Positions 12,501 through 54,764 are shown, numbered from the stretch's first letter. The stretch is DNA of 57,887 nucleotides from a virus (IMGVR_UViG_3300030118_006581:1-57887), one strand, 5' to 3'. Made by a program: numbers and translations. The notes: generated by a model not told the origin, from the sequence alone.

Positions 12501-13166
12501 ACCTGAGTGGATTGCTATACGAAGCCTCCCATAAGTAGCACTTGATGAATTTGTTGTTGAGACGCCATTTGTCAAATCCAAGACAGCCATCTTCCTAGCT
12601 GTACCGGTAGTAATCAAAGCGTCTTTTTTCAAGAAAAATTCAACGGTTGTTCCATTAGTTCCGCCAAATTCCAAGTTAGATGTTCTATCTTTAGCTACAT
12701 TGAATTTTGTATTCTTATGAGGACCTCCTTTAACCTGTATGTAATTTGTAGTTGCTGAGGATTCATCGTATCCTGATGAACTTAGTTTATCTACTGTGTA
12801 AGGCTGTCCTATTGAGACAAAACCCGTTGATCGAGGATAAGTTACCTCTAGAGTATATTTTTCAAGTGGATTTATATTGTTATAAAAATCTGTCTTTTCA
12901 AGACCTGATCCATCATAGGGATAATCGCTGGCTATAAATTCAAAGGCGTTTTTATAATATTTCTCGGCGGATCCAAATTTTACAAATTTTTCTGGATCTG
13001 AGTAATCTATGGGTGGAAGAAAATAATCTTGCTTTTCTGTTAGAGCTTTTAAATGAGCTTCGGACTCAACCCCACTTCCAAGAGTGTTAGGCGCACTACT
13101 CTTTAAGTATTTGCTTACCGTAGTGCCCTGTTTGTTGTTCTGATATAAACTCTTTAAGCTGCTCAT
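9507..13166 (-). CDS. LamG/concanavalin-A-like domain virion (baseplate-associated) protein, 1219 aa
   Basis: LamG hallmarks TVEFFLK...WRNFSF...LFVNG...LDEFRFW...VYFKFNEG; wedge-like segment ILKSKGNQKSIRNFIRCLG; baseplate context. Confidence 0.65.
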   Translation of the reverse strand: MSSLKSLYQNNKQGTTVSKYLKSSAPNTLGSGVESEAHLKALTEKQDYFLPPIDYSDPEKFVKFGSAEKYYKNAFEFIASDYPYDGSGLEKTDFYNNINPLEKYTLEVTYPRSTGFVSIGQPYTVDKLSSSGYDESSATTNYIQVKGGPHKNTKFNVAKDRTSNLEFGGTNGTTVEFFLKKDALITTGTARKMAVLDLTNGVSTTNSSSATYGRLRIAIHSGSETQFFVTMRSGSNGFTETAIPSTPGQITISDATWRNFSFRFNTSTNVPTVDLFVNGTCIETGVTGSGAIGAVTGTMIANIGALRQAPEGFGTTAEGSGKLSASLDEFRFWKKARNAEQIGRHWFTNVEGGSDKYDANVSLGVYFKFNEGITGTSSVDQTMLDYSGRVSNGTYVNYSTAVAIARNTGSAIDQLSMQSITERGDPIVRTNNPNYLTTKLRYEQSGSVYDGINNARLLNHLPNWVIEEDENSGSEIVALTQIVSSYFDTLYNQLTFLKELKYNQYVSGSLSDSIDEFPHNDRLIENYGIQTPELFENADLLSQFFQRDEQINFDQQLVDIKNSIYKNIYNNLNFILKSKGNQKSIRNFIRCLGVGEEILAFNTYSDDMDFELTSSYLSSVSTKKYVDFTGLLNQSDDDAVVYQYYDSSNSNSVGLITGSNQLSEYAFSLQSEFVFPNKDEQDTLPYLVPQVISSSLYGFHTPNIETQTSTDLTWKAAANDHGLQVYAVKSPGEFAEVTSPDFKVRDAFFLVKDRAGNTLLSSSIFRNVYNNERWNLSLTLKPKKYPFSNGVLGTTVATSGYELGFYGVNYNTGKKENYFNVTTDLTYASGSAIVNTAKRIYVGAHKTNFTGSTLISSDVRASSARYWTDYISPAVVDLQAKQVDTHGSLHPSRNAYLFQTASAGVYIPSIQTLALNWEFAEVTGSDASGRFIVQDASSGSVGTDYESSYQGSIFSPINLRQHTGRGDFFTASSTPVRKQYVYADKLLPPEYIAGNEMVKVLSVDDEIFGTFKKPSSTYFAIEKSMYRSISNRMLHLFASIKEFNNLIGEPVNKYRMNYKHMEKLREIFFRKVRNDIPDLQKYLDYYKWLDTAMTEMLDQLMPASARYAPNVRNLVESHALERNKIQHRAPLLKPPGSLSGGNEITGDINGNNTQIGVDGAPGSPASNPRRRPANSNPGDLGGDELLPPEQIQAGRLEDFARGFDAERALRPGLNGPNFG

Positions 13167-16465: not shown

Positions 16466-16870
16466 TTAATTAGTCATTGTCGAAGTTATTATTAACTCAT
16501 CTTTTTCGTTAAAAGGTTGTATAGTATATTTTATAATAACTCTGACTTCATTCAATTGCAAAGTTGAGTCTTCATCACTTGTTAAAAAATCTATGTTTTC
16601 TAAAGAGATTGATGGAATATAGAATGATACCTGTTTATTGATTGTTTCTGCTATTGTTCCAAAAGTAACAGAATTAACTCCTTCAAAAAGAAATCTATAA
16701 AGACCAACTCCAAATTCGGGAACCATTGGTCTTTCGCCAGGTATCGTAAGAATAAGCATTTTTAGATTCTGCCGAAATGTTTCTTTCAGCGTTTTGTTTA
16801 ATTGATAAGGTCCGTCTGTTTTATCGTAGACTAACGGTAACCTTGGTGATATGCCTTGTAGTTTACTCAT
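16466..16870 (-). CDS. Baseplate wedge subunit, GPW/gp25 family
   Basis: QNLKMLILTIPGERPMVPEFGVGLYRFLFE signature; 134 aa; precedes gp6-like gene. Confidence 0.92.
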   Translation of the reverse strand: MSKLQGISPRLPLVYDKTDGPYQLNKTLKETFRQNLKMLILTIPGERPMVPEFGVGLYRFLFEGVNSVTFGTIAETINKQVSFYIPSISLENIDFLTSDEDSTLQLNEVRVIIKYTIQPFNEKDELIITSTMTN

Positions 16871-19800
16871 TTCTGTTAATTAGTGTTTCCAATATACTTT
16901 TCTCTTCCAATCTTCCCTGAAGACTTACATTGTAGTTTCTGTACAAGTTGGGCAAATATATTCTAAAAAATCTTTCCGAAAGCGATTTTACTACTCTTTC
17001 AACATATAAGTCTGGAGCGCCGTCAGGCAAAACGGGTTGCTGCGCAAACTCAAGGAGATCAATTGAAATATCTGTAATATCTTCTCCAGCCTGTTGACGG
17101 CGGAGACGCTCATATTGTTCACGCTCTTTTAAATTAAACGTTTCAAATATGTTCGCTAATTCATCAAAATACAAAGAAGGCATTCGATCACTTGGGAAAA
17201 TTGTGTCAATACCGTTTCGTCCTAAGCCTGTCCTTCCCTGTATCTCTTGTGCAAGAAGTAATTCTATTCTAAGCACAGTTTGGGCTAACTCCTCACGATC
17301 ACCCCTTTGAATATTGTACCATTCCCTAGCGGTATAGGTTCTGCCCTGTCCTGGATTTGTGTATTGGGTGGAAGGATTATAAAAAAGATTATTCAAAATT
17401 ATCAACTTTTCTCTTACCGCAGTTAACAACTCTTCAGAAATGCGGTCAGATAAGTTTTGTGGTATGGGCTCATAACCACCCCCCATATCAATATCGTCTC
17501 CCACTAGGTTCGCAGGGCTAAAATAATCAGGGAATATGTCTAGTAACGTAGCTGGTACAGAGGGCTCATCAGGCGAAAATTTGACTGTTGAATTAACCGA
17601 AGTTAAAAACAACAAATCTCGAAGTCTTAAAATTCTATCATCAGTTAATAAGCTGTCGCTAATCTCTTCCGTGAGGGTGCGCAACCTTTCTTCGACTTGA
17701 TCAGAAGAATAATAAACTACTTCCTGAGTTCCATCATAGTAACGAACACTCACAGGGAACCCTACGAAAGGAGTACTAAACTTTGTTACAAGTTCACCCT
17801 TTATTGCTGTCAGAAGATTATCATCTGCATTCGCATTTTGCACTAAAATTCTATATTGTGTATCACTATATCTGTTTGCATATTTTATGCCACGATCATA
17901 ATAGATCATATAGGATGCTATCTGAAAAGCAATTGGAAAATAGTAAGCTCCAGCCAATAATCCTAATTGAGTTATCTGATTACCATTATAAAACTGACCT
18001 ATAATTGATTGTGCTGCTCGTGCTTGGGCTGCATCCTCAATTCCATATCTTGCAAAATCTACATTAAACAAAAGTCTATAGAATTTAACAAGAGTGTTTT
18101 CATACCTTTGCTTAATATTAGCCGGTGATTCTGGGTCAAAAACAGATCTATTTACTGATTTATATTCAGATAGTCTAGAAATGTTCTGTAATATACCAAC
18201 GTACATTGATTCTATGATATTCCTCACATTTGCTGAGGGACTTAAATCATCAGATATCGCTGGGTTGTTTTTAAATTTATTGTCTTCTAGGTCTTGTGGG
18301 AAAACAAGCTTAACATATTGAATTGATTCATACAAGGGTCCAATCATTTCTTTTGCAGTTAATTCATCTGTTATTTTTTTGTAGAGATAATCTGTAATTA
18401 ATTTTACTGTACCTACACTATTCCAACAAGGATATACACGAGCTAAAGGCATAACATTCATAAAAAATGAAATCATTCTAGTTTGTATAACTTGAATAGC
18501 TGATTCCGCTCGAAGGGTGTCCTCCGCTGTTACACATATATCATCTGTTTTTTCCAGAGGTAGTTTTGCAACAGCCGAGACATAACGTGGCATGCGTCTT
18601 CTTCCGGTGTCATTAATAACAGCATTGTCAATCTGGGTGTCTATTCTTTCTCTGTAATTTTGCATACTTGTAAGATCAACATCTCTATCAAGTGCTCTCA
18701 GCGCCAACTGTTCATTGGTTGGATTTTCAAATGGTAGTCCTACAGAAAAGTTTGAATAAAGTTCAAACATTCCTCCAGAATACAAAGGAGGTAATAGTGT
18801 ATCATTTATAAACAACTTATAATTATTATCAACACGGTAAGTGAAATCACCTATTTGTAAATTGTTAAAAATTCTATAATCTACAGATTGAAAATCACCG
18901 TTTTCTGTTATGGTTTGTGTGTTTGACGATACAGATCTTTCGTTATGTATTAAGCCGGCAGGGTTATAGTATGCAACGGTTGGTGTTTGTCGATCTGCAT
19001 CCCAATACACTATTCGTATATCTCCTTTAGATGGATTTGAACAGTAAAGATTTGACGCTCCAGCATACCCAACATAAGGAGAAAAGGACTCTTGTTGCTT
19101 TAAATATCCATATGTAGCATTTGATATTTTATTAAGTTGTGTCTTTTCACTAGTTGATGGGTCTCCATCATTATCAAGCGGTTGATATACTCGTCTTAAA
19201 CTATCTGGGGACAACAAAGCAGTCCCTTGGGATTCTGCATTATTTAATATTTTTTTCAGTGGAGATGGTGCGTTAACTATTGAATAATACGCAATTCCAT
19301 AAATATCAAACGGCTTTGTGACGGGGCTTCGATATTGGGGAAGAGGTAATTTAGGTAATTCCCCAGGCAAAGCATATGTCATCCATATATAATTATAAAC
19401 AACGTCAGATGTCCAGCCATTTCTTCTTGACCCTATTTGACCACCAGTTAGGGTGACATCACCATCACCATCAACTTCAACAGTTATTGTTGTTCTTTGT
19501 CCATGTCCGGCAGGGGTCATAAAAAATACATCTCCATTTGAAGATTTATAAAGCTGATTTATGCTACACTCTCTTAGTTTAGTTCCAAGTTGGTAATATA
19601 TTTCCGTTCCTAGCTTAGAGTTGTATACATTGTAGTCATAATTTTGAACCCTTTTTTGTTCTTTCCCAAAAAGATCAGAAAACAGTTCTGCTATTGATTC
19701 AGATATAGAGTTACTTATACTTGCTATAAATTCTAGCAAATCATCATACCAAGTCATTGTTGGCAATGAATCTATCAATCTCTCAATTTGAAATTTAATG

Positions 19801-22685
19801 TTAGCTAAGTCTCTTAACCAGTTGCATAGATTATTAATTTTATTAATCTTATCGCTGACTATATCTGCATACTGAGCTTCTATTTCCGGTATGTCAAAAT
19901 TTAATTCTAAAGGATTTGTATAACTCTCTCTTTGGTCGCAATATGCCTCAAGAGGAGAGCGAAATGGCAAATCACCAAACCTACCTTGATTTTCTATTGC
20001 ATCACCCAAGAGGACAAAGAAATCAATTATTTTGTTGTTTGAAAAATTTAAACTATTATAATCATTAGGGTCTATAGTTAAAAGATCAGGTGTCCCTGGA
20101 TTTGAAAAGGGAGATATATAATTCACAACGTGAATACTGGATACAGTCTCAAATATATGACTAATCAGTTCGTTACTAGCATCCCCATCTAGAAGTTGCT
20201 GCAATTCAACTGGAGTTGACATTTCTGAAACGTCCTCTAACAGATTTTGTATTTGTTCTAGTGTCGCTGGAGATGTTTGTCCCTCATTGTCAATATTAAA
20301 AAGATTTGCTAATCGGGCGATTTCTACTAAATCCACCTCTTCAACAAAGTTTCTCAGATCAGTAAAACCAAAATCCTGTTTTTTAAATGAATTTCTTAAA
20401 CCACTGGCTGGTCTTTTATTGCCTTCGGGTCCACAGCCAAGTAAGGCATTAACAACATCTTTTGCAACACCTGCTATGATGGACTTTATAAAGTTTTGAA
20501 GTATTGTCTCAATGGCTTTTTGGTACACTTTAGATTGTTTTGGCTTAAGTCCAATCATTTTTCTTTTCTTAAACTCGATTTTTATTGGTTGATCTAGAGT
20601 TTCTCTAACCAAAGAATTGACAACTGGAGGAGCGCCAATTGGATCTAAAAAATTATCCTCAATAAAATCACCTAAAACATCTAGAGAGCAAAATATTTGC
20701 TGATTGACAGCACGTTCAATCTCTTGTATTGCACGAGTAGGATTATCAGCATATCTAGCTGCATCAGAAATTCTTGCTTTAGTTGTTTCGTCCTCTATGA
20801 CCTCTTGTCGCAGTAAAATAATAGTTTCTCGTATTAGTGATCTAATTTTTGTTTTTCCTGTGGCAGCTTGCCAAAACCTTAAAGCATATTTGGCTGCCTT
20901 TGCTTGCCCTGTGTTACAATCAATACTACTCAAGGTTGAAGCCATTCGATAGCTTAACGGCCTATTTGAAAACAGTCTTTCATACTCAGACGGATCTACC
21001 CTGGAAAGCTCTGAAAGTTTTGTAAACAAGTTCTTTCTTTTTAGTCTCAGTCTTTCATTCTGTTCTCTTGTATTATTTGCACGCTTCGCCCTAATTGCAT
21101 CAATTCTTGAGGGCGGGTAAGAATACTTTGACAAAAAATCTAAAGCAGGCTCTCTTGTTGTTGGCGTTGTATTTCGTACTTCTGTGTATATCTCATAGCT
21201 ATTTTTCAGAAAAGAAAAACTAGTCGGCGTTAAAAGAGAAAAAGCATTAGCAATTCTAGCCTGCTCCTCATTGATATTAAGATAGGTTGTATTACCAGTT
21301 CCTTGATAATAGAAACTTCCGTTAATACAAATATGATCTAATAAATAATCCTTGGTAAAGAACATCTGGACGAAATCATCATCCTCTAGGGATATTTTGT
21401 TATACCCATAAAATAAAGACAATAAATCAAAGAATGATTCAAGACGGTCTACTTCCCTAGCAAGGTCAATTCCATTAAGAACCTGTGGCGTAAAACCATC
21501 ATCTAAAAGCTTTTCATTATATTCTCCCAATACACCTCGAACAGAAAACATATATCTCAGCATATCTTCGATCTGGAAAGTAACACTCCTCGTGGACTTG
21601 TTCTGGTCGCCGATTATCCTCTTTGCTTTTTGTAGAGTAGATAATTCATACTCCTCATAAGATGGTCTATTATTAGTTTCTGTAGAATCTGGGAGATTAT
21701 TAACATCGTTTGAATCTATCTGCAAACAATATATCCATCGAGATCCTGGTCGAAGATCTCTGTAGGATAACAGAGCAAATGTATCAGGAGTACCATATTT
21801 TGATAATAAATTTTGAAAGTTTGCTTCCGAGTTTTTTCCCGTGAGCTTTAATATTTCACGAATACTGGTTTCTACTGCATCATTATATCTTCCTCTTTGA
21901 CTTTCTGACAAACGAGCAAAGAAGCTAATCCTGGCGCTAGTAACTGGTTCTGCTCTTAAGAAGTTAAAAGCATAAGCAGCAGGTTCAGTGCGTCCAGTTC
22001 GTTTAACGTAGTAGAATTTTAAATCAACTGGGTTGTAATACACACGATCATTATCTTCTCCAGGAAGTCCATTTTTTCTCCAGTCGTATAAATCTACATT
22101 AGAGTCAGAACTTATATATGTTGTTACGCTTGGGCTCAAGTTCAGTAGATCAATACCAGCATTATCACTGTACTGGATATCTGGCAACCCTAGTGCATTT
22201 CTTAATTGATTTTTGTATTGCTTGGAGTGGGCGGAAGGAACTGCAATCAAATTTGCTATATCTTGATTAAGGTCTGGTCTATCGTTATCGTTTCTGTATT
22301 CTTCTTTATATGTCAACTCGGAAGTATTAGAAGAGTACTTCTCTAAAGAACCATTCTCTCTCAATTGTTCAACCACGCTTTGTAAAGCAGCTATAGAGTC
22401 GGTATCGCTGATTTCTTCTGCACTATTATTCACTACTCTGCCATTTTGAGGGTAAAGCGCAAAATATGCAAGCATATCGTCTGTAGTGATTGTCCTATCA
22501 CGATCTACTAACTCTTTGCCGATTTTGGGGAACTCATAGAAGAATAGATAACTTTCGTGAATAGCGTCAATGACAAACTTATTAGATTCATTCTCATAGT
22601 CGTAACCCAAGCCTCGCCTAGAGTCTGTATCAACAGTCTCAGCGTATGGGTTTATTATTCTTCGTTGCCTATCTGTTAGTGCCAT
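16863..22685 (-). CDS. Giant hypothetical protein (1940 aa), probably virion/baseplate hub region
   Basis: Long ORF between the spike-like genes and gp25; largely helical composition; no recognisable motif. Confidence 0.55.
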   Translation of the reverse strand: MALTDRQRRIINPYAETVDTDSRRGLGYDYENESNKFVIDAIHESYLFFYEFPKIGKELVDRDRTITTDDMLAYFALYPQNGRVVNNSAEEISDTDSIAALQSVVEQLRENGSLEKYSSNTSELTYKEEYRNDNDRPDLNQDIANLIAVPSAHSKQYKNQLRNALGLPDIQYSDNAGIDLLNLSPSVTTYISSDSNVDLYDWRKNGLPGEDNDRVYYNPVDLKFYYVKRTGRTEPAAYAFNFLRAEPVTSARISFFARLSESQRGRYNDAVETSIREILKLTGKNSEANFQNLLSKYGTPDTFALLSYRDLRPGSRWIYCLQIDSNDVNNLPDSTETNNRPSYEEYELSTLQKAKRIIGDQNKSTRSVTFQIEDMLRYMFSVRGVLGEYNEKLLDDGFTPQVLNGIDLAREVDRLESFFDLLSLFYGYNKISLEDDDFVQMFFTKDYLLDHICINGSFYYQGTGNTTYLNINEEQARIANAFSLLTPTSFSFLKNSYEIYTEVRNTTPTTREPALDFLSKYSYPPSRIDAIRAKRANNTREQNERLRLKRKNLFTKLSELSRVDPSEYERLFSNRPLSYRMASTLSSIDCNTGQAKAAKYALRFWQAATGKTKIRSLIRETIILLRQEVIEDETTKARISDAARYADNPTRAIQEIERAVNQQIFCSLDVLGDFIEDNFLDPIGAPPVVNSLVRETLDQPIKIEFKKRKMIGLKPKQSKVYQKAIETILQNFIKSIIAGVAKDVVNALLGCGPEGNKRPASGLRNSFKKQDFGFTDLRNFVEEVDLVEIARLANLFNIDNEGQTSPATLEQIQNLLEDVSEMSTPVELQQLLDGDASNELISHIFETVSSIHVVNYISPFSNPGTPDLLTIDPNDYNSLNFSNNKIIDFFVLLGDAIENQGRFGDLPFRSPLEAYCDQRESYTNPLELNFDIPEIEAQYADIVSDKINKINNLCNWLRDLANIKFQIERLIDSLPTMTWYDDLLEFIASISNSISESIAELFSDLFGKEQKRVQNYDYNVYNSKLGTEIYYQLGTKLRECSINQLYKSSNGDVFFMTPAGHGQRTTITVEVDGDGDVTLTGGQIGSRRNGWTSDVVYNYIWMTYALPGELPKLPLPQYRSPVTKPFDIYGIAYYSIVNAPSPLKKILNNAESQGTALLSPDSLRRVYQPLDNDGDPSTSEKTQLNKISNATYGYLKQQESFSPYVGYAGASNLYCSNPSKGDIRIVYWDADRQTPTVAYYNPAGLIHNERSVSSNTQTITENGDFQSVDYRIFNNLQIGDFTYRVDNNYKLFINDTLLPPLYSGGMFELYSNFSVGLPFENPTNEQLALRALDRDVDLTSMQNYRERIDTQIDNAVINDTGRRRMPRYVSAVAKLPLEKTDDICVTAEDTLRAESAIQVIQTRMISFFMNVMPLARVYPCWNSVGTVKLITDYLYKKITDELTAKEMIGPLYESIQYVKLVFPQDLEDNKFKNNPAISDDLSPSANVRNIIESMYVGILQNISRLSEYKSVNRSVFDPESPANIKQRYENTLVKFYRLLFNVDFARYGIEDAAQARAAQSIIGQFYNGNQITQLGLLAGAYYFPIAFQIASYMIYYDRGIKYANRYSDTQYRILVQNANADDNLLTAIKGELVTKFSTPFVGFPVSVRYYDGTQEVVYYSSDQVEERLRTLTEEISDSLLTDDRILRLRDLLFLTSVNSTVKFSPDEPSVPATLLDIFPDYFSPANLVGDDIDMGGGYEPIPQNLSDRISEELLTAVREKLIILNNLFYNPSTQYTNPGQGRTYTAREWYNIQRGDREELAQTVLRIELLLAQEIQGRTGLGRNGIDTIFPSDRMPSLYFDELANIFETFNLKEREQYERLRRQQAGEDITDISIDLLEFAQQPVLPDGAPDLYVERVVKSLSERFFRIYLPNLYRNYNVSLQGRLEEKSILETLINRNE

Positions 22686-43537: not shown

Positions 43538-44197
43538 TTAGTTGTTGACGAGTTCATCGATCTTGTTATATAGTTCCGGGCTAATTTTCTTTAGTTTTTG
43601 TTTACTTCCCAGAAAATACTGCTCAAATCCAGTAGCAAAGTATTCACGCAATGAAACAGAACTATAGGGTCGAATAAACATCCCAGAAGTAATCATTCTG
43701 AGTAGGTTTTTACCGACTCGCTTATAAAGAAACTGATCAAAATCCTCATCGAACTTAAGGTTTTTAAAATCATACTCCTGTGTCCAATATCCTTCTGACC
43801 TCAGTTCAAATTCCAACTCATATCTTTTTTTGAGAAACTCTTTTTTTATTTTTTGATCACCATAAATTTGTTCCGGGTATAGAACTTCTGCGTGGTGTGC
43901 AAATTCGTGAACAATATCATCTATCAAATCAGCAGCATTATCTTGATCTTGAGTTATATAAAAAACACCGTCTTTATACAGGGCATTAGCTTCACGATCA
44001 TCAAAAATTTCTTGGTGACCTATCTGCACTCCCTTAAGTCCACTAAATAATTTAGATGGTATTAGCTTCTCTACAGAGCGAAAAATAGCTTGGGCATCAA
44101 CGTTATCTGGTAGTTGATCTTTTTGATAAACAGGGACATTCCCAAACCGAAAATGCCTAGTGGTATTTTTTACCTTCTCAAAAACATATTCTCTCAT
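43538..44197 (-). CDS. Zincin-like metalloprotein (HExxH)
   Basis: IVHEFAHH plus downstream Y...REYFATGFE third-ligand pattern. Confidence 0.65.
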   Translation of the reverse strand: MREYVFEKVKNTTRHFRFGNVPVYQKDQLPDNVDAQAIFRSVEKLIPSKLFSGLKGVQIGHQEIFDDREANALYKDGVFYITQDQDNAADLIDDIVHEFAHHAEVLYPEQIYGDQKIKKEFLKKRYELEFELRSEGYWTQEYDFKNLKFDEDFDQFLYKRVGKNLLRMITSGMFIRPYSSVSLREYFATGFEQYFLGSKQKLKKISPELYNKIDELVNN

Positions 44198-45545: not shown

Positions 45546-45568
45546 AAAAAAGCCGCCCGAAGGCGGCT
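45546..45568 (-). terminator. Rho-independent terminator after tmRNA
   Basis: Minus strand AGCCGCC-TTCG-GGCGGCT-TTTTT; C(UUCG)G tetraloop. Confidence 0.9.
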
Positions 45569-45891
45569 GGTGGAGGTAGGGAGAATCGAACTCCCGTCTT
45601 GTCTAGTTCCATAAAGAGGTCATTCACAAGGTTAGGTCTGTTTTTTTCGTCAGACAGCCCACTTGACTAGATCATTTTATTGTGGCTAAAATAATCAAAA
45701 GCACTTACAAAGACACAGTACGGCTTTCTGTTTTTTGGCTGCCGTCGCCTCAAGTCAAGTCAGGTTATTAAGCTGCTTGTGCTAGTTGAAAATCGTCGTT
45801 TGCGATTAGAAGTTAAGCGTTTTTAGTGAGCCACGCTTCCCTCACCCTTGCACCTTTTTTACTTTCCTATCAATCGATACCGGTTACCCCC
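45568..45891 (-). ncRNA. ssrA: tmRNA, one-piece, 324 nt; tag peptide ANDDFQLAQAA* at 45803-45768
   Basis: 5' GGGGGTA pairs with 3' TACCTCC-ACCA with G3:U; T-arm GGGAG-TTCGATT-CTCCC; pk1 GTGAG/CTCAC + AAGCGT/ACGCTT; resume codon GCA, tag ends AA then TAA TAA. Confidence 0.96.
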
Positions 45892-46078: not shown

Positions 46079-46855
46079 TTAAAGATCTAATTCCATATCA
46101 ACCCCTTGTTCAACATCATCTGTAGGGTCTTCTTTTTCCTCTTCATATTCTGGAGTAGAGACGGGAGACAAATCGTTCTGAAGTTCGTCTTCGAATTTAT
46201 CGAAATATAAAAGTAGATTCGTAACAAGATAGTCATAAAAAACATCCTTGTCTTTTTCATCTGCTAACATATCATAAGCATCAACAATTTGTTTTTCTAC
46301 CCTTTTATATGAAGCTTGAGCAAAGTTTCTACCAGTTTCATTCTGATCGTCTAGTTTTATGAAGTCATCTTCATCTGAATCGCCATCGCCATCAACATCA
46401 ATGAATTCACCTTCTATTGATTGTGCTTCTTTTCCGTCATCTTGTGGATCAAGATCTATGGATATTTTTTCTAACAGTGTATCTCTGTCAATTTCATACT
46501 CTATATCTTCAGTTTGTTTTTCACCCTGTGTGTTAGCTTCTATGGGTCTTAAGGAGTTTTCAACTGCGTGTACAATATGATTTTTAAAAGATTCTCTTTG
46601 TTCCTCTGAGGTGGTCAGCATTTTGTAATCATCTTGGAGTGTTGGAATAATATTCTGCAAAAGATCAGCAAGAACATTAATACCTGTACTACGACTAGCT
46701 TCTTCTGTACCGGTCTCAGCTTCAATCAATTTACGAACAACTTTTCTTATCTTTTCCTCAGCAAGTCTCTGCTGGTCCAGCTTTAAAGCTATTCTTTTAC
46801 GGATATGCTCCCTGATAAGTTCTTCAGCGATTAGTTGTTCTCGGTCAATAGTCAT
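46079..46855 (-). CDS. Acidic hypothetical protein (258 aa), possible head-internal protein
   Basis: Very Asp/Glu-rich; N-terminal LIAEELIREHIRK...IRKVVRKLIEAE helical leader. Confidence 0.65.
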   Translation of the reverse strand: MTIDREQLIAEELIREHIRKRIALKLDQQRLAEEKIRKVVRKLIEAETGTEEASRSTGINVLADLLQNIIPTLQDDYKMLTTSEEQRESFKNHIVHAVENSLRPIEANTQGEKQTEDIEYEIDRDTLLEKISIDLDPQDDGKEAQSIEGEFIDVDGDGDSDEDDFIKLDDQNETGRNFAQASYKRVEKQIVDAYDMLADEKDKDVFYDYLVTNLLLYFDKFEDELQNDLSPVSTPEYEEEKEDPTDDVEQGVDMELDL

Positions 46856-46865
46856 AGTATTATAA

Positions 46866-49800
46866 TTATCTCCGTCTTTGACGTTTTGCTCTTCTAACTT
46901 TTGGACGGCTAGTTTTAGAGCGGGTTTTGTTAGGGTAAACAGGTTTCATTCCCAAGGGTAGAGAGTAGCCACCAACACCCCCAGCAGACATCTCATCAAT
47001 GGTATCGTCTATCACTGAATTCAGTCTTTCAGTTTGAGGAATTAAAGAATTCCACAGAGCCTCTCCGTCAATTGATGGCGGAGCATAAGATAAGAAAGTT
47101 TCTTTATCTCTCTCAGCAATTGCTTTTCTCATATCACGAGCACTATAAACAATACCATCCTTGGATTGGACAGGATCTTCAACGATGTCTTCTACATTTA
47201 CACCGGGGTTATGACGCTCAGCATACGATTGCGCACGATCAAAGCGAGTATCCCCTACATCCTTACTACTCTTAACTAAAAGAACCGTATCTCCATCGGA
47301 GGCTGACTCAGGATCAGCAACAAATTCATAGACTGCCTGAACTGGACTGCGGTAGTCTGCAATTTTTGCAGTAATGTTTGGTTCACCGTTCTCAAGGTAT
47401 TCTTCCCAGATACGCAAACTTTGCGCATTGCTTACTTCTGGATAATCAACGGGAGAAATTAAAACAATCACCTCATCAACATCAGACCGTTTAGCAATTT
47501 TATTCACATAATCAAAGTGACCACGATGTGGTGGTTTAAACTTACCAGGGAATAGAGCTATACGCTTACCTTCTTTTTCAGTAATAACTTGAGTGGTGTT
47601 ATTTAGTGATTCGTTTCTTTGGGCTGGTGCTGATTTATCTTTAGCAACTTGAGTTTTCATCTCTTGTCCGATAATTTCACTATTTTTAATAGCTCCATCA
47701 CCAGCAGTAATAGCATCACTCCTATCACCGTAAGTGAAGTATCCATCTATGTCATCAGATAAATTTTTTGTAGCCTTGAAAATTTCTTCAATAGAACCCT
47801 CAAGAACGCCCATATAGTTTTCAGCAACAGCAACAATTCTATCAGTTGAAACGGGTAAATTACCAATAATCTTAAACCCTGATATATCTGAAGATATTCC
47901 TGTACCTTTTTTAGTATCGGGGACGATCTCTGTAGCAGAAATACTCCAGCTTCTGCCCTTTGCGCTCTGTTCCTCTGTTAATAAATCAGTTTTCCAAAGT
48001 TCTCTTTGTTCTTCAATAGTTAATCTAACAAGTCCCTCTTCTGCGAGTTCAGGATTATTTTCAACAGGCTGTGTCTCTTCTTCGGGTTGGGTAGCTTGAG
48101 TATCTTGTTGTTTTAAACGAGCTTCTTTTTCTTTCTTTGCCTTCTCATACTTAGCAGCCATGGCATCCCTTTTTTGGGCGCTATATCCGTATGTATTTTT
48201 AAGAAGCTCATACCTAACGGGCCATTCAGCAGCAGCATAGAGCTTCTTTAATTCTTCCACTTGTTTTACGACGTTATTTTTGTATTTCAGTAATCTTCTA
48301 TCGTATTTAGCGAGTAGATCTGCTGATAATTTTTTATCTTTTTTACCAGGGTAAACAAGGGGTTTATCACCGGAACCAAAAAGTTCATATTTGGCTTTTT
48401 CTTGTTTGCCGGAAGTTAGTAACTCTATAACATTGTCTCGTGTGATAGCAAATTGCTGAATTTGAATTTCATCGCCTAATTTTCTTGTGACAATGTAGAG
48501 CATCTCTGGATAAGTATTTAAAGCTTCTACAAGGTTTGTAAAACTTCCCTCTATTTTTCCACCTTCTTTTAATAATTTTAGACTAACAGGGATTCCCGCA
48601 ACACCTTCTATAGTTTTGAACGCTATAATATCCTCAATGGGTTTACTACCGTCATCAGGGTCTACTACCTGTTCTCCAGAGAACATGGCTGCTAGAAATC
48701 CTTCAAGCACAAAACCGGCTGACGACTCAGTGAAGCTATTAATCACCGCAGATAAAGACTCTAGAAAAATAAGAGTACTAATAATTCTTCGTGGCGATCT
48801 CATATTAGTATCAAAATTAGCTCTATCAATTATATCGTCAAATTTAGCTTGAATATTAGCACCACCTGAAATTGTTGCAAAAATCTTCTCAACCTGTTTT
48901 CTTTCCATGGATTGAGGCTTGCCCCAAGACTCATTAGGGGAGAACTTAGGAAGATTTAAAATAAATTGTCTTGCTCTTTCTTTCTTAATATTATTTTCTT
49001 TCTCTGTTATGATTGGTTTGTCAACAACTAGAGATTCTTTTGTACTTCTTTTTAGGTTCCCGTAGCGGAACATCCCAAGTATCTGATTTAGCGGAGCAAA
49101 GTTGCCCGCAAACTTGTATGTGTGTCCATTATAATCAAAGACCACCGCCTCTACTGGCGTAGTAATCGTAGAAAAGTCCTTGATTTTGTTGAGGTGACGC
49201 TGCATAACAGCCATGGCTTCGGGATTCTCAGTACCAACTGAAGTGATTTCTTTTACAGCGTTCGCAAGCTCATTCTTGAGACGCATTACTTCTTTGTTAT
49301 TATCTTCGATAAAGATACTTCTAAGACCTTTTAACAGTTCAACTGTAAAGTCGTGGATAGCTAACTCTAATGGTTCAACAGATTGTTGAAGCAATACTTT
49401 ACTACCCGCTATTATTGAGTTAAGGTCTTGCAAATCTTGAGGATTCAAGCCTTTCTTGAGTGCTCGCAGTCCTATGTTTCCGGGAAGCTTAAGAATATAA
49501 TTTATTATCTCTTCTTTTAAATTTCTAGGTAATTCAGAATCAATACCATTCATTAACCTTTTGTACATATAATCAAGGATAGTGGAGTCATCATTTAATC
49601 CCTCTTTCCTCATCTCATTATTAATGCGATTAAAAGCTTGATTTAGGGCTTGTCCATCATCTTCAATTTTTTTAATGTCTACTAAAGCTCTTCGTGCTAA
49701 ATTAAAATCATCGCTGTGAAGTTGGTTCTCCATTCTCTCCATAGCATTATCAAGAGTTTCAAGAGTTCCTCTGGGAATTGGTGATTGATCTCCAGTTTCA

Positions 49801-50255
49801 CGATCAAACACAAAGTGACCAACGTCGTGTATTTTTAGTGTTTTATCATCGTAGAGGATAACATTTGCATTACCTGGATCCATAACCTCAGCATTGTACC
49901 AAATATTTGTGTTGGGTCCAAAGATTCTCTCTTTCTCTTCGTCTGATAACGCCTCAACAGCTTTTTCAAAAGTAGCAAAGCCGCCACTAAAAGCCTTTTC
50001 TAACCCTCCACGACCAGCAAACTTTTGTGCAAGCCCTGCGGCATCTAAACCGCCAGACTTTAAATTTCCTTTGTTACGGGCTCCCTTGGCTTTTCCCTCG
50101 GGAATAGAATAAGAAAGAAATAGATTTTGACCGTCTACTTTTTCTTCAGCAGTCAGTTCACCATTAGCAGCAGCTTCAAGGATCTCCTTCATTTCACCAA
50201 ATGTTAAATCTCTATTTTCATAGAGATGATCCATGTGACCAGCTACGCCACCCAT
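46866..50255 (-). CDS. 1129-aa fusion: ligase-like nucleotidyltransferase domain + PD-(D/E)XK-like middle domain + HxGH cytidylyltransferase-like domain
   Basis: EEKVDGQN (KxDG motif I), ARN, EAVVF...YKF (motifs IV/V); middle GFVLEGFLAA...PIEDI...VSLK; C-terminal FPGKFKPPHRGH and SARDMR. Confidence 0.72.
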   Translation of the reverse strand: MGGVAGHMDHLYENRDLTFGEMKEILEAAANGELTAEEKVDGQNLFLSYSIPEGKAKGARNKGNLKSGGLDAAGLAQKFAGRGGLEKAFSGGFATFEKAVEALSDEEKERIFGPNTNIWYNAEVMDPGNANVILYDDKTLKIHDVGHFVFDRETGDQSPIPRGTLETLDNAMERMENQLHSDDFNLARRALVDIKKIEDDGQALNQAFNRINNEMRKEGLNDDSTILDYMYKRLMNGIDSELPRNLKEEIINYILKLPGNIGLRALKKGLNPQDLQDLNSIIAGSKVLLQQSVEPLELAIHDFTVELLKGLRSIFIEDNNKEVMRLKNELANAVKEITSVGTENPEAMAVMQRHLNKIKDFSTITTPVEAVVFDYNGHTYKFAGNFAPLNQILGMFRYGNLKRSTKESLVVDKPIITEKENNIKKERARQFILNLPKFSPNESWGKPQSMERKQVEKIFATISGGANIQAKFDDIIDRANFDTNMRSPRRIISTLIFLESLSAVINSFTESSAGFVLEGFLAAMFSGEQVVDPDDGSKPIEDIIAFKTIEGVAGIPVSLKLLKEGGKIEGSFTNLVEALNTYPEMLYIVTRKLGDEIQIQQFAITRDNVIELLTSGKQEKAKYELFGSGDKPLVYPGKKDKKLSADLLAKYDRRLLKYKNNVVKQVEELKKLYAAAEWPVRYELLKNTYGYSAQKRDAMAAKYEKAKKEKEARLKQQDTQATQPEEETQPVENNPELAEEGLVRLTIEEQRELWKTDLLTEEQSAKGRSWSISATEIVPDTKKGTGISSDISGFKIIGNLPVSTDRIVAVAENYMGVLEGSIEEIFKATKNLSDDIDGYFTYGDRSDAITAGDGAIKNSEIIGQEMKTQVAKDKSAPAQRNESLNNTTQVITEKEGKRIALFPGKFKPPHRGHFDYVNKIAKRSDVDEVIVLISPVDYPEVSNAQSLRIWEEYLENGEPNITAKIADYRSPVQAVYEFVADPESASDGDTVLLVKSSKDVGDTRFDRAQSYAERHNPGVNVEDIVEDPVQSKDGIVYSARDMRKAIAERDKETFLSYAPPSIDGEALWNSLIPQTERLNSVIDDTIDEMSAGGVGGYSLPLGMKPVYPNKTRSKTSRPKVRRAKRQRRR

Positions 50256-50494
50256 TACTTATCCTCTGTGAGTACTTTTAATTCTTCTTCAAGAGCATTT
50301 ACACGCTCATTTAGAGATCTTACGTGGCGCTTAATAGAACGTATATGTTCTTTTGCTAATTGGACTCTTCCAGAGTCTCTTTTGTTAGTAACTCTAATAC
50401 TAGATACAATATCATAAAGAGCTTGAACAGAAGCTCCAGCATCTACTTTAAACTCTTCATTTAGAAGAAACTTCTTAGTCAGCCTTTTTAGCAC
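50255..50494 (-). CDS. Small coiled-coil hypothetical protein (79 aa)
   Basis: ORF overlapping both neighbours; heptad-like C-terminus. Confidence 0.65.
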   Translation of the reverse strand: MLKRLTKKFLLNEEFKVDAGASVQALYDIVSSIRVTNKRDSGRVQLAKEHIRSIKRHVRSLNERVNALEEELKVLTEDK

Positions 50495-50660
50495 TGGACT
50501 TCTTCACTTTCTTGGGTGCTTTTGCAGCCTCAGCTTTAGGTGCAGCTTTAGGTGCAGCTTTAGGTGCGGCCTTGGGTGCAGGTGCTGCTGCTCTACGTGC
50601 AGCATCTCTTGCTGCAACTCTTGCAGCCCTTCTTGCTTTTCTTACTCGTGGACTAGGCAT
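50475..50660 (-). CDS. Small basic Ala/Lys/Arg/Pro-rich histone-H1-like protein (61 aa)
   Basis: AGGAGG RBS; Arg-rich N-terminus then PKAA repeats. Confidence 0.75.
   Translation of the reverse strand: MPSPRVRKARRAARVAARDAARRAAAPAPKAAPKAAPKAAPKAEAAKAPKKVKKSSAKKAD
50531..50578. repeat. 12-bp coding tandem repeat (CAGCTTTAGGTG x3 plus one degenerate copy)
   Basis: Directly visible; encodes the APKA/PKAA units. Confidence 0.9.
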
Positions 50661-51710: not shown

Positions 51711-52643
51711 TTACAGAGGTTCAAAACCTCCATCATCTTTAACGGAACCAATGTGAAAATATTCATGAAGATTGTTGTGCAAATTTTGCATCATCTTGAT
51801 CATAGTAGAATCTGTTTTATCTTGATTGTTGTTTAATTTTTGCCATACTTGCATTTCGGCTTTAGCAATTGAGTTTCTCAAAAATACTTTTATTGCAAGA
51901 AGTGGTGATGCAACACCAATGTTTTCCATCGACCGATACCCAGCAAAAATATTGCCAATCAATTCATTATTACTATTAACAATTGGAGACCCGCTGCTTC
52001 CTGGTTTAGTTGGCATACTATACATTGCATAGCCTTCTGGTGAATACCCTGTAAAATATCCGTCAAATGTTAGAACCATTCTTGGAAAAACAATACCATG
52101 AGGTGCAGCCATATTATAAGCAAGTTGTCCTCTTTTAGGTCGATCTTTGGCTACTTTAAGAATTGGTGGCTTAGTTAGTACAGTATTTACTCTGAGTAGG
52201 CAAAGATCAAATCTTTTATCAATGGCAACCACATCAGCATTATATTTAAAACCATTGTAATCAACAATAGTAAATTTTTGACCCATATGAGTTACCACTA
52301 CACTATCTATTTTTCTTTCTTTCATAAATGTACTACGACAAGAATGCCCTGCACTTAAAACATAACTTACATCACTTGAGACTTCACTGTGTTTAATAAA
52401 AGACCCAGATGAAACAGCACGAGATTTTGCGTTTTGACATTTGACTTTATTGTCCTTATCAAGTTCACATCCTTTCCAAAGTGTATCACTTCTTAGTTGA
52501 ACAAAGGATTTTACTGGAAAATTATGCCTTAGTGGTTTTGCCTTGTTATGGTAAGAAGTACAGGCACCAGAACAGCTTGCAACCGTAACATATAACAGGG
52601 TGATTAAACACACTCTAAGGGTATCCGTAATTATTCGTATCAT
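51711..52643 (-). CDS. Trypsin-like (S1) serine protease, exported, possibly a lipoprotein
   Basis: Triad motifs LSAGHSC, FDLCLL, PGSSGSP; hydrophobic N-terminus with VASC lipobox-like site. Confidence 0.87.
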   Translation of the reverse strand: MIRIITDTLRVCLITLLYVTVASCSGACTSYHNKAKPLRHNFPVKSFVQLRSDTLWKGCELDKDNKVKCQNAKSRAVSSGSFIKHSEVSSDVSYVLSAGHSCRSTFMKERKIDSVVVTHMGQKFTIVDYNGFKYNADVVAIDKRFDLCLLRVNTVLTKPPILKVAKDRPKRGQLAYNMAAPHGIVFPRMVLTFDGYFTGYSPEGYAMYSMPTKPGSSGSPIVNSNNELIGNIFAGYRSMENIGVASPLLAIKVFLRNSIAKAEMQVWQKLNNNQDKTDSTMIKMMQNLHNNLHEYFHIGSVKDDGGFEPL

Positions 52644-53043: not shown

Positions 53044-53517
53044 ATGACAAGAGTATTAACTAATAGATGGGTGCTCTTGTGTGTTCTTTGTGTGACAATT
53101 GCAGTCTCCTCGTTTTTAATATATAAAAACAATTTTCAGCCAGAATTAGTATTATCAAAAGACATAACTTATTATCTACCTGGACAAAGAGATAATTGTA
53201 AATGGATATTACAGGCAGATAATAATTTAAGAAACATAGCTGGCGAAACAACTGAAATTAGAATAGGTATACCCGAAGTTCAAGCGGGCGGTTATCTAAG
53301 CGGCCGCATAGAAGTGGGACAACATAATAATCTGATGCTTGCTTTTGTCCCCCCAGGGACACAAAAGAACAAAGTTCCTGTTATTCTAACAGCAGACTAT
53401 TCTGAACAAGAATTGCCGATCAATTTTTTAAGGTTTAGGTGGGTACAAAGCAGCACAATAACTATTCTTATATTTTCCTCCGAAGAAATGTGTATCGCCT
53501 CTAGGGGTAAAAAATAA
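53044..53517 (+). CDS. Membrane-anchored hypothetical protein (157 aa)
   Basis: AGGAG RBS before ATG 53044; N-terminal TM WVLLCVLCVTIAVSSFLIY; TAATG overlap with the next gene. Confidence 0.7.
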   Translation: MTRVLTNRWVLLCVLCVTIAVSSFLIYKNNFQPELVLSKDITYYLPGQRDNCKWILQADNNLRNIAGETTEIRIGIPEVQAGGYLSGRIEVGQHNNLMLAFVPPGTQKNKVPVILTADYSEQELPINFLRFRWVQSSTITILIFSSEEMCIASRGKK

Positions 53518-54764
53518 TGAGATTCTTACCCTTACTGTTTGCTCTTAGTGCTATCTCTGGGTGTGAAGAAGATAGGCTTGTCAAGATTGAGTGCATTCCT
53601 GGTGAAAAACTTGTATGTGATGAGCACGGTCAAGACTTCCCTGCGGCTGATCCTATTGATATCGCACAAAGAGCAGGTCAGTGTTCTTACGGTTTAAAAA
53701 CTTGCACAACAAGTGGCTGGTCAGAATGTGTGGGAGCACGAGGACCTTCTGAAGAAATCTGTGATGGCATAGACAATGATTGTGATGCTGCCATTGATGA
53801 AACCTACCCAGAAATACATCAGCTTTGTGGGTTTGAAGAAAACGTTGATTATGGGGTTGGTATTTGTACACCTGGTGTTATGAAATGTGACAACGGGGGT
53901 TTATATTGTGATGGTCACGTTGGACCTACTGAAGAAACGTGTGATGGGGTTGATAATAATTGTAATGGAACTGTTGACGAAAATATTCCAAACTCAACTG
54001 CTGTTGTTTGTTACGAAGGTCCAGACGGAACTTTAGGCATTGGAGAATGTCGAGCAGGAATTAGGTACTGTACTGACGGCAACTTTGGTGGACCTTGTGA
54101 TAATCAAACTTTGCCAACCTTAGAAAGATGTGACGATCTGGATAATGATTGTGACGGTGAGGTTGATGAAGGTTTTGATAATCGTGGTGTAGATTTAGTT
54201 TTTGTTCTCGATATATCCGGATCCTTCAGGGATGAGATAGACTCAATGATTCAAGGCATAACTCCCCTCTTAGACGACCCGATAACGAGCACATTTCGCT
54301 TTGGACTAGTTGTTGTAGGTGCTAGGGGCGGTGATGACTTAAGACCGCAAAATTACCTCGCAAGAATGGTGTCTGATTTTGTCTATGCTGACGAGTTTCT
54401 TGCTGTGATAGAGGCCGGCAGAATGATACCAAGTGCTGGACAAGAGCCAACAATTGATACAATGTACTGGTCAATGAATACTTATCCATTTTCGTGGAGA
54501 CCAGATGCACAAAAAGTTATTATAACAATGACTGACGAAGAAGCACAGACAATGAACGAGCACCCTATGTCTTGTTTGGAGATAGGTGAACTATCAAATA
54601 CTTTAGGTTTCGAACTATTTGTATTTGCCCTTGAACAACACCATAACACATTTATTAACTGTGTAAGAGGTGAAAGAGACCGACTGTACACACCTACAGC
54701 AAATTCAGAAACTGTATTTTTACAGATCAGAGCTATATTCGAAGACCTTTGTATCGGTCGTTAA
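53517..54764 (+). CDS. Lipoprotein with three Cys-rich (MopE-related, ExCDxxDNxC) repeats and a C-terminal vWA domain
   Basis: Lipobox ISGC; repeats EICDGIDNDCD, ETCDGVDNNCN, ERCDDLDNDCD; MIDAS DISGS, later TDEE. Confidence 0.88.
   Translation: MRFLPLLFALSAISGCEEDRLVKIECIPGEKLVCDEHGQDFPAADPIDIAQRAGQCSYGLKTCTTSGWSECVGARGPSEEICDGIDNDCDAAIDETYPEIHQLCGFEENVDYGVGICTPGVMKCDNGGLYCDGHVGPTEETCDGVDNNCNGTVDENIPNSTAVVCYEGPDGTLGIGECRAGIRYCTDGNFGGPCDNQTLPTLERCDDLDNDCDGEVDEGFDNRGVDLVFVLDISGSFRDEIDSMIQGITPLLDDPITSTFRFGLVVVGARGGDDLRPQNYLARMVSDFVYADEFLAVIEAGRMIPSAGQEPTIDTMYWSMNTYPFSWRPDAQKVIITMTDEEAQTMNEHPMSCLEIGELSNTLGFELFVFALEQHHNTFINCVRGERDRLYTPTANSETVFLQIRAIFEDLCIGR

Follow-up and report, generated by a model that had tools for sequence, protein, structure and literature searches.

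A putative head-protease-processed enzyme polyprotein with a duplicated linker motif in an uncultured T4-like marine phage

In phage T4, the head protease gp21 cuts after Glu in L/I-X-E, virion proteins shed propeptides of 7–65 amino acids (aa), internal proteins carry capsid-targeting sequences of 10–19 aa, and Alt is trimmed at both ends, according to the available text of PMC9026906. 2H, Nudix, and ART domains have been reported as packaged in myoviruses, and multi-domain polyvalent proteins have been discussed, in the accessible parts of PMC9503650 and PMC7824862. Here we describe an 1129-aa protein encoded by IMGVR_UViG_3300030118_006581, a 57.9-kb piece of an uncultured virus record that is about 32% complete (the whole stretch of 57,887 nucleotides is called the window throughout). 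The window encodes T4-type baseplate wedge proteins, an M23 peptidase, a sugar-biosynthesis block, an exonuclease, and PIN-PhoH, and the source of the open reading frame (ORF) is an uncultured T4-like marine phage. The protein joins an RNA-ligase-like domain (N), a middle module (M), and a HIGH-motif nucleotidyltransferase (C), and it is best explained as a fused representative of the U-N-C-X module that marine T4-like phages conserve, with M placed in the N-C linker (Table 1). We lean, with confidence a little above even, toward reading the ORF as a polyprotein that is loaded into the capsid and processed by the head protease, in which a widespread enzyme module has taken up M as an optional insert.

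Short leaders ending in hydrophobic-hydrophobic-x-Glu, as in T4 Alt and the internal proteins IPI–III, are also present in half of the N family and in cyanophage C-type enzymes, a gp21-family protease is likewise encoded in related genomes, and in both systems an enzyme would be head cargo. Unlike in T4, several enzymes form a single chain here and a candidate cut site stands at each joint, the 1129-aa protein has no leader of its own and is known from sequence alone, and neither an RNA-ligase-like enzyme nor a HIGH nucleotidyltransferase is a known T4 head protein. The polyvalent or head-packaged myovirus effectors described by Iyer and Aravind, as far as the available text of those reports goes, likewise unite multiple conflict-type enzyme domains in a single large protein, which is presumed to travel into the cell with the DNA; they are described as single chains, often anchored by MuF or portal domains, whereas no such anchor is seen here and the joints resemble protease sites. 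A literature search found no description of the N-C fusion or of its processing and no assay of the N-C family.

The duplicated linker and the module borders

The ORF was first described in a sequence-only reading made without database searches, and translation together with a motif search bore out its extent and the positions given for the repeated ITEKE. The motif ESL-x6-ITEKE lies at aa 407–420 and aa 882–895, with ITEKE at aa 416–420 (nucleotides 49010–48996) and aa 891–895 (nucleotides 47585–47571), and ESL stands nine residues ahead of each ITEKE with equal spacing in the two linker copies. The middle domain between the copies, put at about 470 aa in that reading, measures 460 aa. A gapped repeat of this form (3+x6+5, eight positions) occurred in 0 of 5000 shuffles of the 1129-aa protein, and a plain repeated 5-mer is unremarkable, being present in 2187 of 5000; the ESL-x6-ITEKE repeat is real and non-random. 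The 45-nucleotide copies are identical at 28 bases and use differing synonymous codons at four of the eight conserved residues (TCT/TCA, ATA/ATT, ACA/ACT, and GAG/GAA), that is, the three in ITE noted in the sequence-only reading and a fourth in Ser. Given base identity at only 28 of 45 positions and the synonymous differences, conservation of the linker lies at the protein level.

Relatives were identified by a phmmer search of the 1129-aa protein against 1.84 billion representatives, in which each match is a cluster at 50% identity. This search resulted in 2876 matches, which makes the N-C family a large one that ocean phages carry very commonly. The best 150 of the 2876 matches and the protein of Microcystis phage Mel-JY01 (151 proteins) were then sorted by architecture. 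Direct N-C fusion was the commonest arrangement (115/151), with variable linkers of 10–50 aa, and M was carried only by P0003 and the fragment P0050; the order N-M-C was found in five of 79 related IMG/VR loci. The M-less close relatives have a single linker, of the form NESLN..VITEED followed by GKR in L018 and L015 (NESLNVDAKVITEED before GKR in L018), NESLNNSTVITEVE before GKR in L012, and KESLAARAKVLTEKD before GKK in L005, and P0004 likewise has one copy. The M-bearing relatives L014 and L003 have the linker on both sides of M, and in the window the clade form ..ESL..VITE.. before GKR also flanks M on both sides. Because the single linker of the M-less relatives is the motif itself, the window is best described as carrying the clade linker on both sides of an inserted module. 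Homologues in which the ligase-like domain is joined straight to the HxGH domain by one linker copy, which had been predicted, therefore exist (L018, and N-C fusions generally).

The window protein and that of L014 are 87% identical in N, 93% in linker 1, 50% in M, 100% in linker 2, and 94% in C, and the fastest-changing part of M is aa 600–800; by this comparison, constraint on the linkers equals that on the catalytic domains, and M evolves fast. In an N+C tree, a quick maximum-likelihood one, all seven M-bearing rows fell within one 18-row clade (support 96), and four changes were needed to account for the presence of M, of which supported branches force three or more. Because the M label needs at least 3–4 changes in one clade, M appears to have been gained or lost repeatedly. 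The fused M sequences clustered among free-standing ones in the M tree, which was made with FastTree only, and a single origin of fused M would still be compatible with that tree. M is an optional insert into the N-C linker that comes and goes among close relatives. The proposal of an exchangeable cargo slot is borne out only in part, a single type of cargo being seen in the middle: among the 150 representatives and 79 loci, the slot held M (2 representatives, 5 loci) and one insert of about 100 aa in P0033, so the predicted homologues with other cargo there amount to that insert, and variable modules stand mostly ahead of N or behind C.

The borders of the modules were compared across the family. 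In 143 aligned homologues, N begins with M/V-GG in 71 and is preceded by a leader or upstream domain of 5–623 aa in 72. All 72 of the latter have L/I/V/M-x-E directly before the GG of N (the automatic register gives this for 71, and in P0111 the site comes one residue later), the P3 residue being L in 57, I in 10, V in 3, and M in 1. Two kinds of gene with an equal mature N-terminus are what a propeptide cut would predict. Mel-JY01, in which C precedes N, reads NIIAE/GGLGGHM at the border (marked by the slash). The pattern [LIVM]xE was present in 105 of 114 N-C linkers, compared with 56.9 +/- 4.9 (maximum 71) in 1000 shuffles, and within 20 aa before the conserved core in 64 of 65 free-standing M proteins, whose leaders are 33–120 aa long, compared with 36.9 +/- 3.8 in shuffles that, like the former, ignore shared ancestry. 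In the fusion, N and the linker replace the leader of free-standing M, and I-T-E418 stands at the matching place. Behind C, 75 of 152 proteins fitted a strict pattern in which L/I-x-E precedes (M/I)S..GG.V.G and a Lys-rich stretch, and the 1129-aa protein has a site of this type, I-D-E1088, at the border of C and the tail. These counts are supportive, not proof, of cut sites. In the alignments, L/I/V-x-E marks module borders across the family; the expectation that homologues keep the motif itself at the borders held for ITE in the nearer relatives, and the distant M-bearing ones keep some L/I/V-x-E in place of ITE.

Table 1. Features of the 1129-aa ORF and of its neighbourhood, in window coordinates
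Feature	Position	Strand	Residues or size	Description
Whole ORF	46866..50255	-	1129 aa	Order N-linker-M-linker-C-basic tail
N domain	49041..50255	-	aa 1-405	Starts MGGVAGHMDH; RNA-ligase-like covalent nucleotidyltransferase
Linker copy 1	48996..49040	-	aa 406-420	KESLVVDKPIITEKE; candidate cut after E418 (I-T-E)
M module	47616..48995	-	aa 421-880	Elsewhere a free-standing phage protein of 420-590 aa
Linker copy 2	47571..47615	-	aa 881-895	NESLNNTTQVITEKE; candidate cut after E893
C domain	47001..47570	-	aa 896-1085	HIGH-motif (PPHRGH) nucleotidyltransferase, PPAT/NMNAT type
Tail	46866..47000	-	aa 1086-1129	IDE, candidate border, MSAGGVGGYSLPLG, then very basic end ..RPKVRRAKRQRRR
Gene U	50255..50494	-	79 aa	Upstream; stop overlaps the ATG of the ORF (TAATG)
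Gene X	46079..46855	-	258 aa	Acidic, just downstream; starts MTIDREQLIAEELIRE
Phage tmRNA (transfer-messenger RNA)	45568..45891	-		Between X and PIN-PhoH; tag ANDDFQLAQAA; ARAGORN; Rfam RF00023 88.8 bits, E 3e-33
Trypsin-fold serine protease	51711-52643	-		Trypsin_2 E 1.6e-13; weak Peptidase_S7 match

The three domains

The claim of a KxDG ligase-like domain was substantiated for N by conserved columns and by structure comparison. The KxDG of N is K39-V-D41-G42, and K39, D41, and G42 are invariant in 62 relatives, in which E369 and K381 are also invariant and E123 nearly so, the assignment of these residues to motifs III, IV, and V being by inspection. Modelling the domains separately, as had been proposed, gave a confident AlphaFold model of N (predicted local distance difference test, pLDDT, 92.6) with mostly RNA and DNA ligases as its structural neighbours. 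In Foldseek, the best matches were archaeal RNA ligases of the Rnl3 type (8ucf, expectation value (E) 6.3e-4; 2vug, probability 0.99). VIA-align returned NgrRnl (Z 8.4, root-mean-square deviation 4.1, 187 residues aligned), T4 Rnl1 (Z 8.3, deviation 4.0, 179 aligned), TbREL1 (Z 7.8), T4 Rnl2 (7.5), and Trl1 (7.5), and its 50 rows, all with modest Z values, were in the majority RNA or DNA ligases and included two capping enzymes. N thus shares the nucleotidyltransferase fold and the KxDG with the ATP-dependent RNA ligases (T4 Rnl1, T4 Rnl2, NgrRnl of Naegleria, archaeal Rnl3, and the ligase domain of fungal Trl1), and its conserved acidic residues and Lys close to the C-terminal strands may, by inspection, correspond to theirs. 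N differs from these ligases in matching at Z of only 7–8.4 over about 190 of 420 residues, in a helical insert of about 170 aa that splits the fold, in a conserved N-terminal GG..GHM.H element, and in having no sequence-level match to any Pfam ligase family. Scans of the whole protein with Pfam, PHROGs, and NCBIfam gave no match for N or for M. On the strength of the model, N is an RNA-ligase-like KxDG nucleotidyltransferase that shares its fold and motif I with the ligases.

C carries the HxGH signature after its first strand (..LFPGKFKPPHRGHFD..), with PG.FKPPH conserved in relatives. The window protein alone scored 17.8 bits against Pfam CTP_transf_like, below the 21-bit cut-off, the NCBIfam scan gave partial matches, 35 of 62 relatives matched PF01467 (E <= 0.01), and the family profile matched PPAT/NMNAT structure chains with E 6.8e-8 over about 150 residues. 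The signature, the partial matches, and the profile match agree with the earlier assignment of an HxGH nucleotidyltransferase, and by its family profile C belongs to the HIGH nucleotidyltransferase superfamily, though its own sequence is under the Pfam threshold.

The third claim, a restriction-endonuclease-like middle, fared less well. Residues invariant in 66 M sequences are E518, P539-I540-x-D542, and S558-L559-K560, with Ser where the second acid of PD-(D/E)xK is expected, the catalytic assignment being by inspection. Foldseek of the M model (505 residues, pLDDT 79.7) gave no match at E <= 1e-3, and its weak rows (probability at most 0.69) were rich in PvuII, EcoRV, HincII, DpnI, SwaI, and the Holliday-junction resolvase Hjc; in the protein atlas, the nearest named cluster to M was RE_Eco47II (score 0.82). 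The VIA-align lists for the same model were filled by a C-terminal helical hairpin and were uninformative on the core, and phmmer and profile searches of M against solved structures returned nothing useful. The invariant residues would suit a PD-(D/E)xK variant, and the restriction-enzyme-rich rows and the atlas cluster weakly suggest that M is such a nuclease.

Four of five near-complete genomes with an M-less N-C gene encode a free-standing M elsewhere, and in the other 74 loci no copy was found closer than 10 kb to the module. In three near-complete genomes, free-standing M lies near a gene with a GroEL-type chaperonin-like start (L097 7492-10850, L098 4623-7720, and L099 6801-12452), a label read by eye from the N-terminal sequence; M directly adjoins this gene in two of them and is about 2.4 kb away in the third.

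In a tblastn search of 50,697 phage records, N was matched solely in Mel-JY01, for which a literature search returned no paper, and in two uncultured megaphages; matches to C were weak and confined to 13 records of Stenotrophomonas phages, and no cultured close relative was found in these records. Mel-JY01 encodes a C-N fusion. P0024 has an N-terminal Peptidase_M23 cell-wall hydrolase domain, a typical virion-borne activity, and 2H phosphoesterase domains, which heal RNA ends, are present in three family members.

Proposed head processing and its alternatives

Peptidase_S77, the family of T4 gp21, was found over the Pfam cut-off in 8 of 11 module-holding records and in all six of those that are at least 90% complete, the near-complete positives including the record of the M-bearing relative L039; Mel-JY01 also encodes Peptidase_S77. 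Evidence from virions is indirect and comes from a cyanophage homologue of C. The "cytidylyltransferase" gp140 of cyanophage S-SZBM1 matches the C part of the family profile with E 5e-18, and 119 of 120 gp140 homologues begin with M(R/K)F.(Q/E)F(I/L).E followed by Ala, a leader very like the T4 capsid-targeting sequence as given in the available text of PMC8442874. According to the accessible part of PMC9146016, gp140 and its neighbour gp139 are among 30 proteins found by liquid chromatography–mass spectrometry in CsCl-purified virions. The gene before gp140 encodes gp141, a member of Pfam DUF6267 (E 4e-130) that by inspection shows N-like short motifs in order (H-L-E-H-L-E-D, K-W-D-G, and E-G-F-V...K). 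The gene order of this cyanomyovirus pair is like that of N and C, a protein of about 400 aa followed by a HIGH nucleotidyltransferase, with two genes there and a fusion here. gp139 has no significant likeness to M or X. Membership of N itself in DUF6267 (PF19782) found no support, with no match at E <= 1 for the window protein and 0 of 62 relatives matching, and a DUF6267 search of the window gave no match at E <= 10.

Most likely the protein works in the manner of T4 Alt and the internal proteins. It would be synthesised late and incorporated into the core of the prohead; entry might be through its basic tail and its leader-bearing partners U and X, which is a guess. A gp21-type head protease would cut after Glu at I-T-E418, I-T-E893, and perhaps I-D-E1088, and the pieces N, M, and C would stay in the head, enter the cell with the DNA, and act there on RNA ends or nucleotides. 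Their most likely role would be to repair or modify RNA of the tRNA or tmRNA type against host RNA-cutting defences; the 2H relatives, the tmRNA and tRNA neighbours, and the ligase-like fold together point to RNA-end work. Cleavage at these sites, packaging, and ejection of the 1129-aa protein, like all enzymatic activities and targets, are what we infer from sequence comparison.

Several observations weigh against processing in the head. No head genes are present in the window, and because the window is a fragment (about a third of a genome) without head genes, the phage's own head protease is not seen in it; the module neighbourhood of tmRNA, PIN-PhoH, exonuclease, and sugar genes does not form a block of head genes. 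The late promoter of the T4 type, TATAAATA, was not found upstream of the U-N cluster on the minus (coding) strand, this sequence occurring 9 times in the window with 6.8 occurrences expected. The 1129-aa protein has no targeting leader of its own because it starts with MGGVAGHM and an in-frame stop lies two codons upstream. The L/I-x-E before GG could belong to the folded N domain instead of being a cut site, the distant M-bearing relatives L011 and L072 have no ITE at border 2 and only V-K-E further upstream, and the linkers and leaders scored in the ancestry-blind shuffles are rich in Glu and hydrophobic residues. Around linker copy 1, aa 396–412 of the M model have pLDDT <50 and aa 414–434 are modelled as helix, and a helix start at the copy-1 ITEKE may make protease access less easy. 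As for the cyanophage parallel, gp141 is not named in the available text or tables of PMC9146016, and hhalign of N against DUF6267 gave non-significant E of 0.044 and 0.065.

Some of these points fit the main rival, an uncleaved, cytoplasmic, multi-domain RNA-repair or RNA-processing enzyme, comparable to fungal Trl1 or Pnkp/Hen1, in which the duplicated linker would be an insertion scar and flexible spacer and the L/I-x-E pattern would reflect acidic, helix-prone spacers. An RNA-ligase-like N, the 2H phosphoesterase domains of three relatives, the tmRNA, tRNAs, and PIN-PhoH beside the module, the missing leader and late promoter, and the partly helical motif copy 1 would all be expected of such an enzyme, and fusions of RNA ligase and nuclease are known, for example Rnl2-HNH in the available text of PMC7824862. 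We nevertheless consider it unlikely, since it leaves unexplained why 72 of 72 leaders end in L/I/V-x-E before GG while the other proteins start with M-GG, why the linkers are conserved like catalytic domains beside a fast-evolving M, why the leader of free-standing M ends at the matching point, and why a cyanophage homologue with a T4-like targeting leader is found in virions. That the repeated flanks are mainly recombination borders for gain and loss of an M cassette, acting at the DNA level or through recombination of one linker copy with the other, with no proteolysis, is quite improbable in our judgment. The changes in M presence, at least 3–4, that are needed within one well-supported clade agree with it, as do the contrast between M (50% identical) and its flanks (93–100%) and the fact that deletion between direct copies would restore the exact single linker of the M-less relatives; the bases shared by the copies and their synonymous differences argue instead for conservation of the protein, and recombination at the borders is compatible with cleavage sites rather than opposed to them.

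Cleavage by the neighbouring trypsin-fold serine protease, as in the polyproteins of RNA viruses, was also considered. This protease has a Trypsin_2 match (Table 1), and 50 of 79 loci encode a homologue of it no more than 10 kb from the module, in two arrangements, either upstream on the same strand or beside PhoH on the opposite strand. PhoH is equally syntenic with the module (57/79), so that the neighbourhood says little. The protease and its homologues carry a lipoprotein signal peptide, with a strict lipobox in 32 of 50 and ..TVASC in that of the window, by which export to the periplasm is expected, and the enzyme is presumably periplasmic. It was rejected as the processing enzyme because of the lipoprotein signal, and the cyanophage and T4 parallels favour gp21, which makes this route highly improbable.

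Should the joints of the 1129-aa protein be head-protease sites, capsid targeting of the T4 type would extend from small internal proteins to multi-enzyme polyproteins, and it would be explained why the shuffling of cargo genes leaves their delivery intact. If this is true, RNA-repair enzymes packaged in the head would be a new phage way to pre-empt tRNA- or mRNA-cutting defences, and a leader with L/I-x-E would offer a concrete handle to predict injected proteins in uncultured T4-like phages. A broader proposition, which we find doubtful, is that marine T4-like phages use a hydrophobic-x-Glu junction code, cut by the head protease, to string cargo enzymes together and deliver an RNA-end kit with their DNA. 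The U-N-C-X genes, M, 2H phosphoesterases, and the cell-wall hydrolase could then be freely fused, split, and inserted, yet be delivered as separate enzymes, and the kit, made up of an RNA-ligase-like enzyme, a nucleotidyltransferase, and a nuclease, would repair or modify RNA ends with the phage tmRNA and tRNAs before phage gene expression, against RNA-cutting defences.

Neighbouring genes and other observations

U, which is conserved upstream of N in 53 of 79 loci, has L-x-E at both its N-terminus (..LTKKFLLNE) and its C-terminus (..LKVLTEDK), the latter immediately before the ATG of the ORF. A 61-aa, very basic, histone-H1-like protein with Ala/Lys/Pro repeats (..APKAAPKAAPKAAPKAE..) is encoded at 50475-50660 (minus strand), overlapping the start of U; a homologue was found in 1 of 79 loci. 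X corresponds by homology to the extension that many long homologues carry at their C-terminus (45 matched stretches, E down to 1e-52) and adjoins or is fused with N-C in 72 of 79 loci. In 26 of 60 related loci, a tmRNA lies downstream on the strand of the module, and tRNA genes or clusters often accompany it.

Elsewhere in the window, the baseplate region contains three giant ORFs of 2189, 1219, and 1940 aa (2911-9480, 9507-13166, and 16863-22685, minus strand) with almost no family matches, the only one being to Laminin_G_3, in the ORF of 1219 aa. Among structural genes, 53517-54764 (plus strand) encodes a protein of 415 aa that has metal-binding motifs of the MopE type and weakly matches von Willebrand A. 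Beside PhoH, at 43538-44197 (minus strand), lies the gene of a 219-aa protein with a sub-threshold Peptidase_M90 match (23 bits) and a weaker ATLF match, which is probably a small zinc peptidase.

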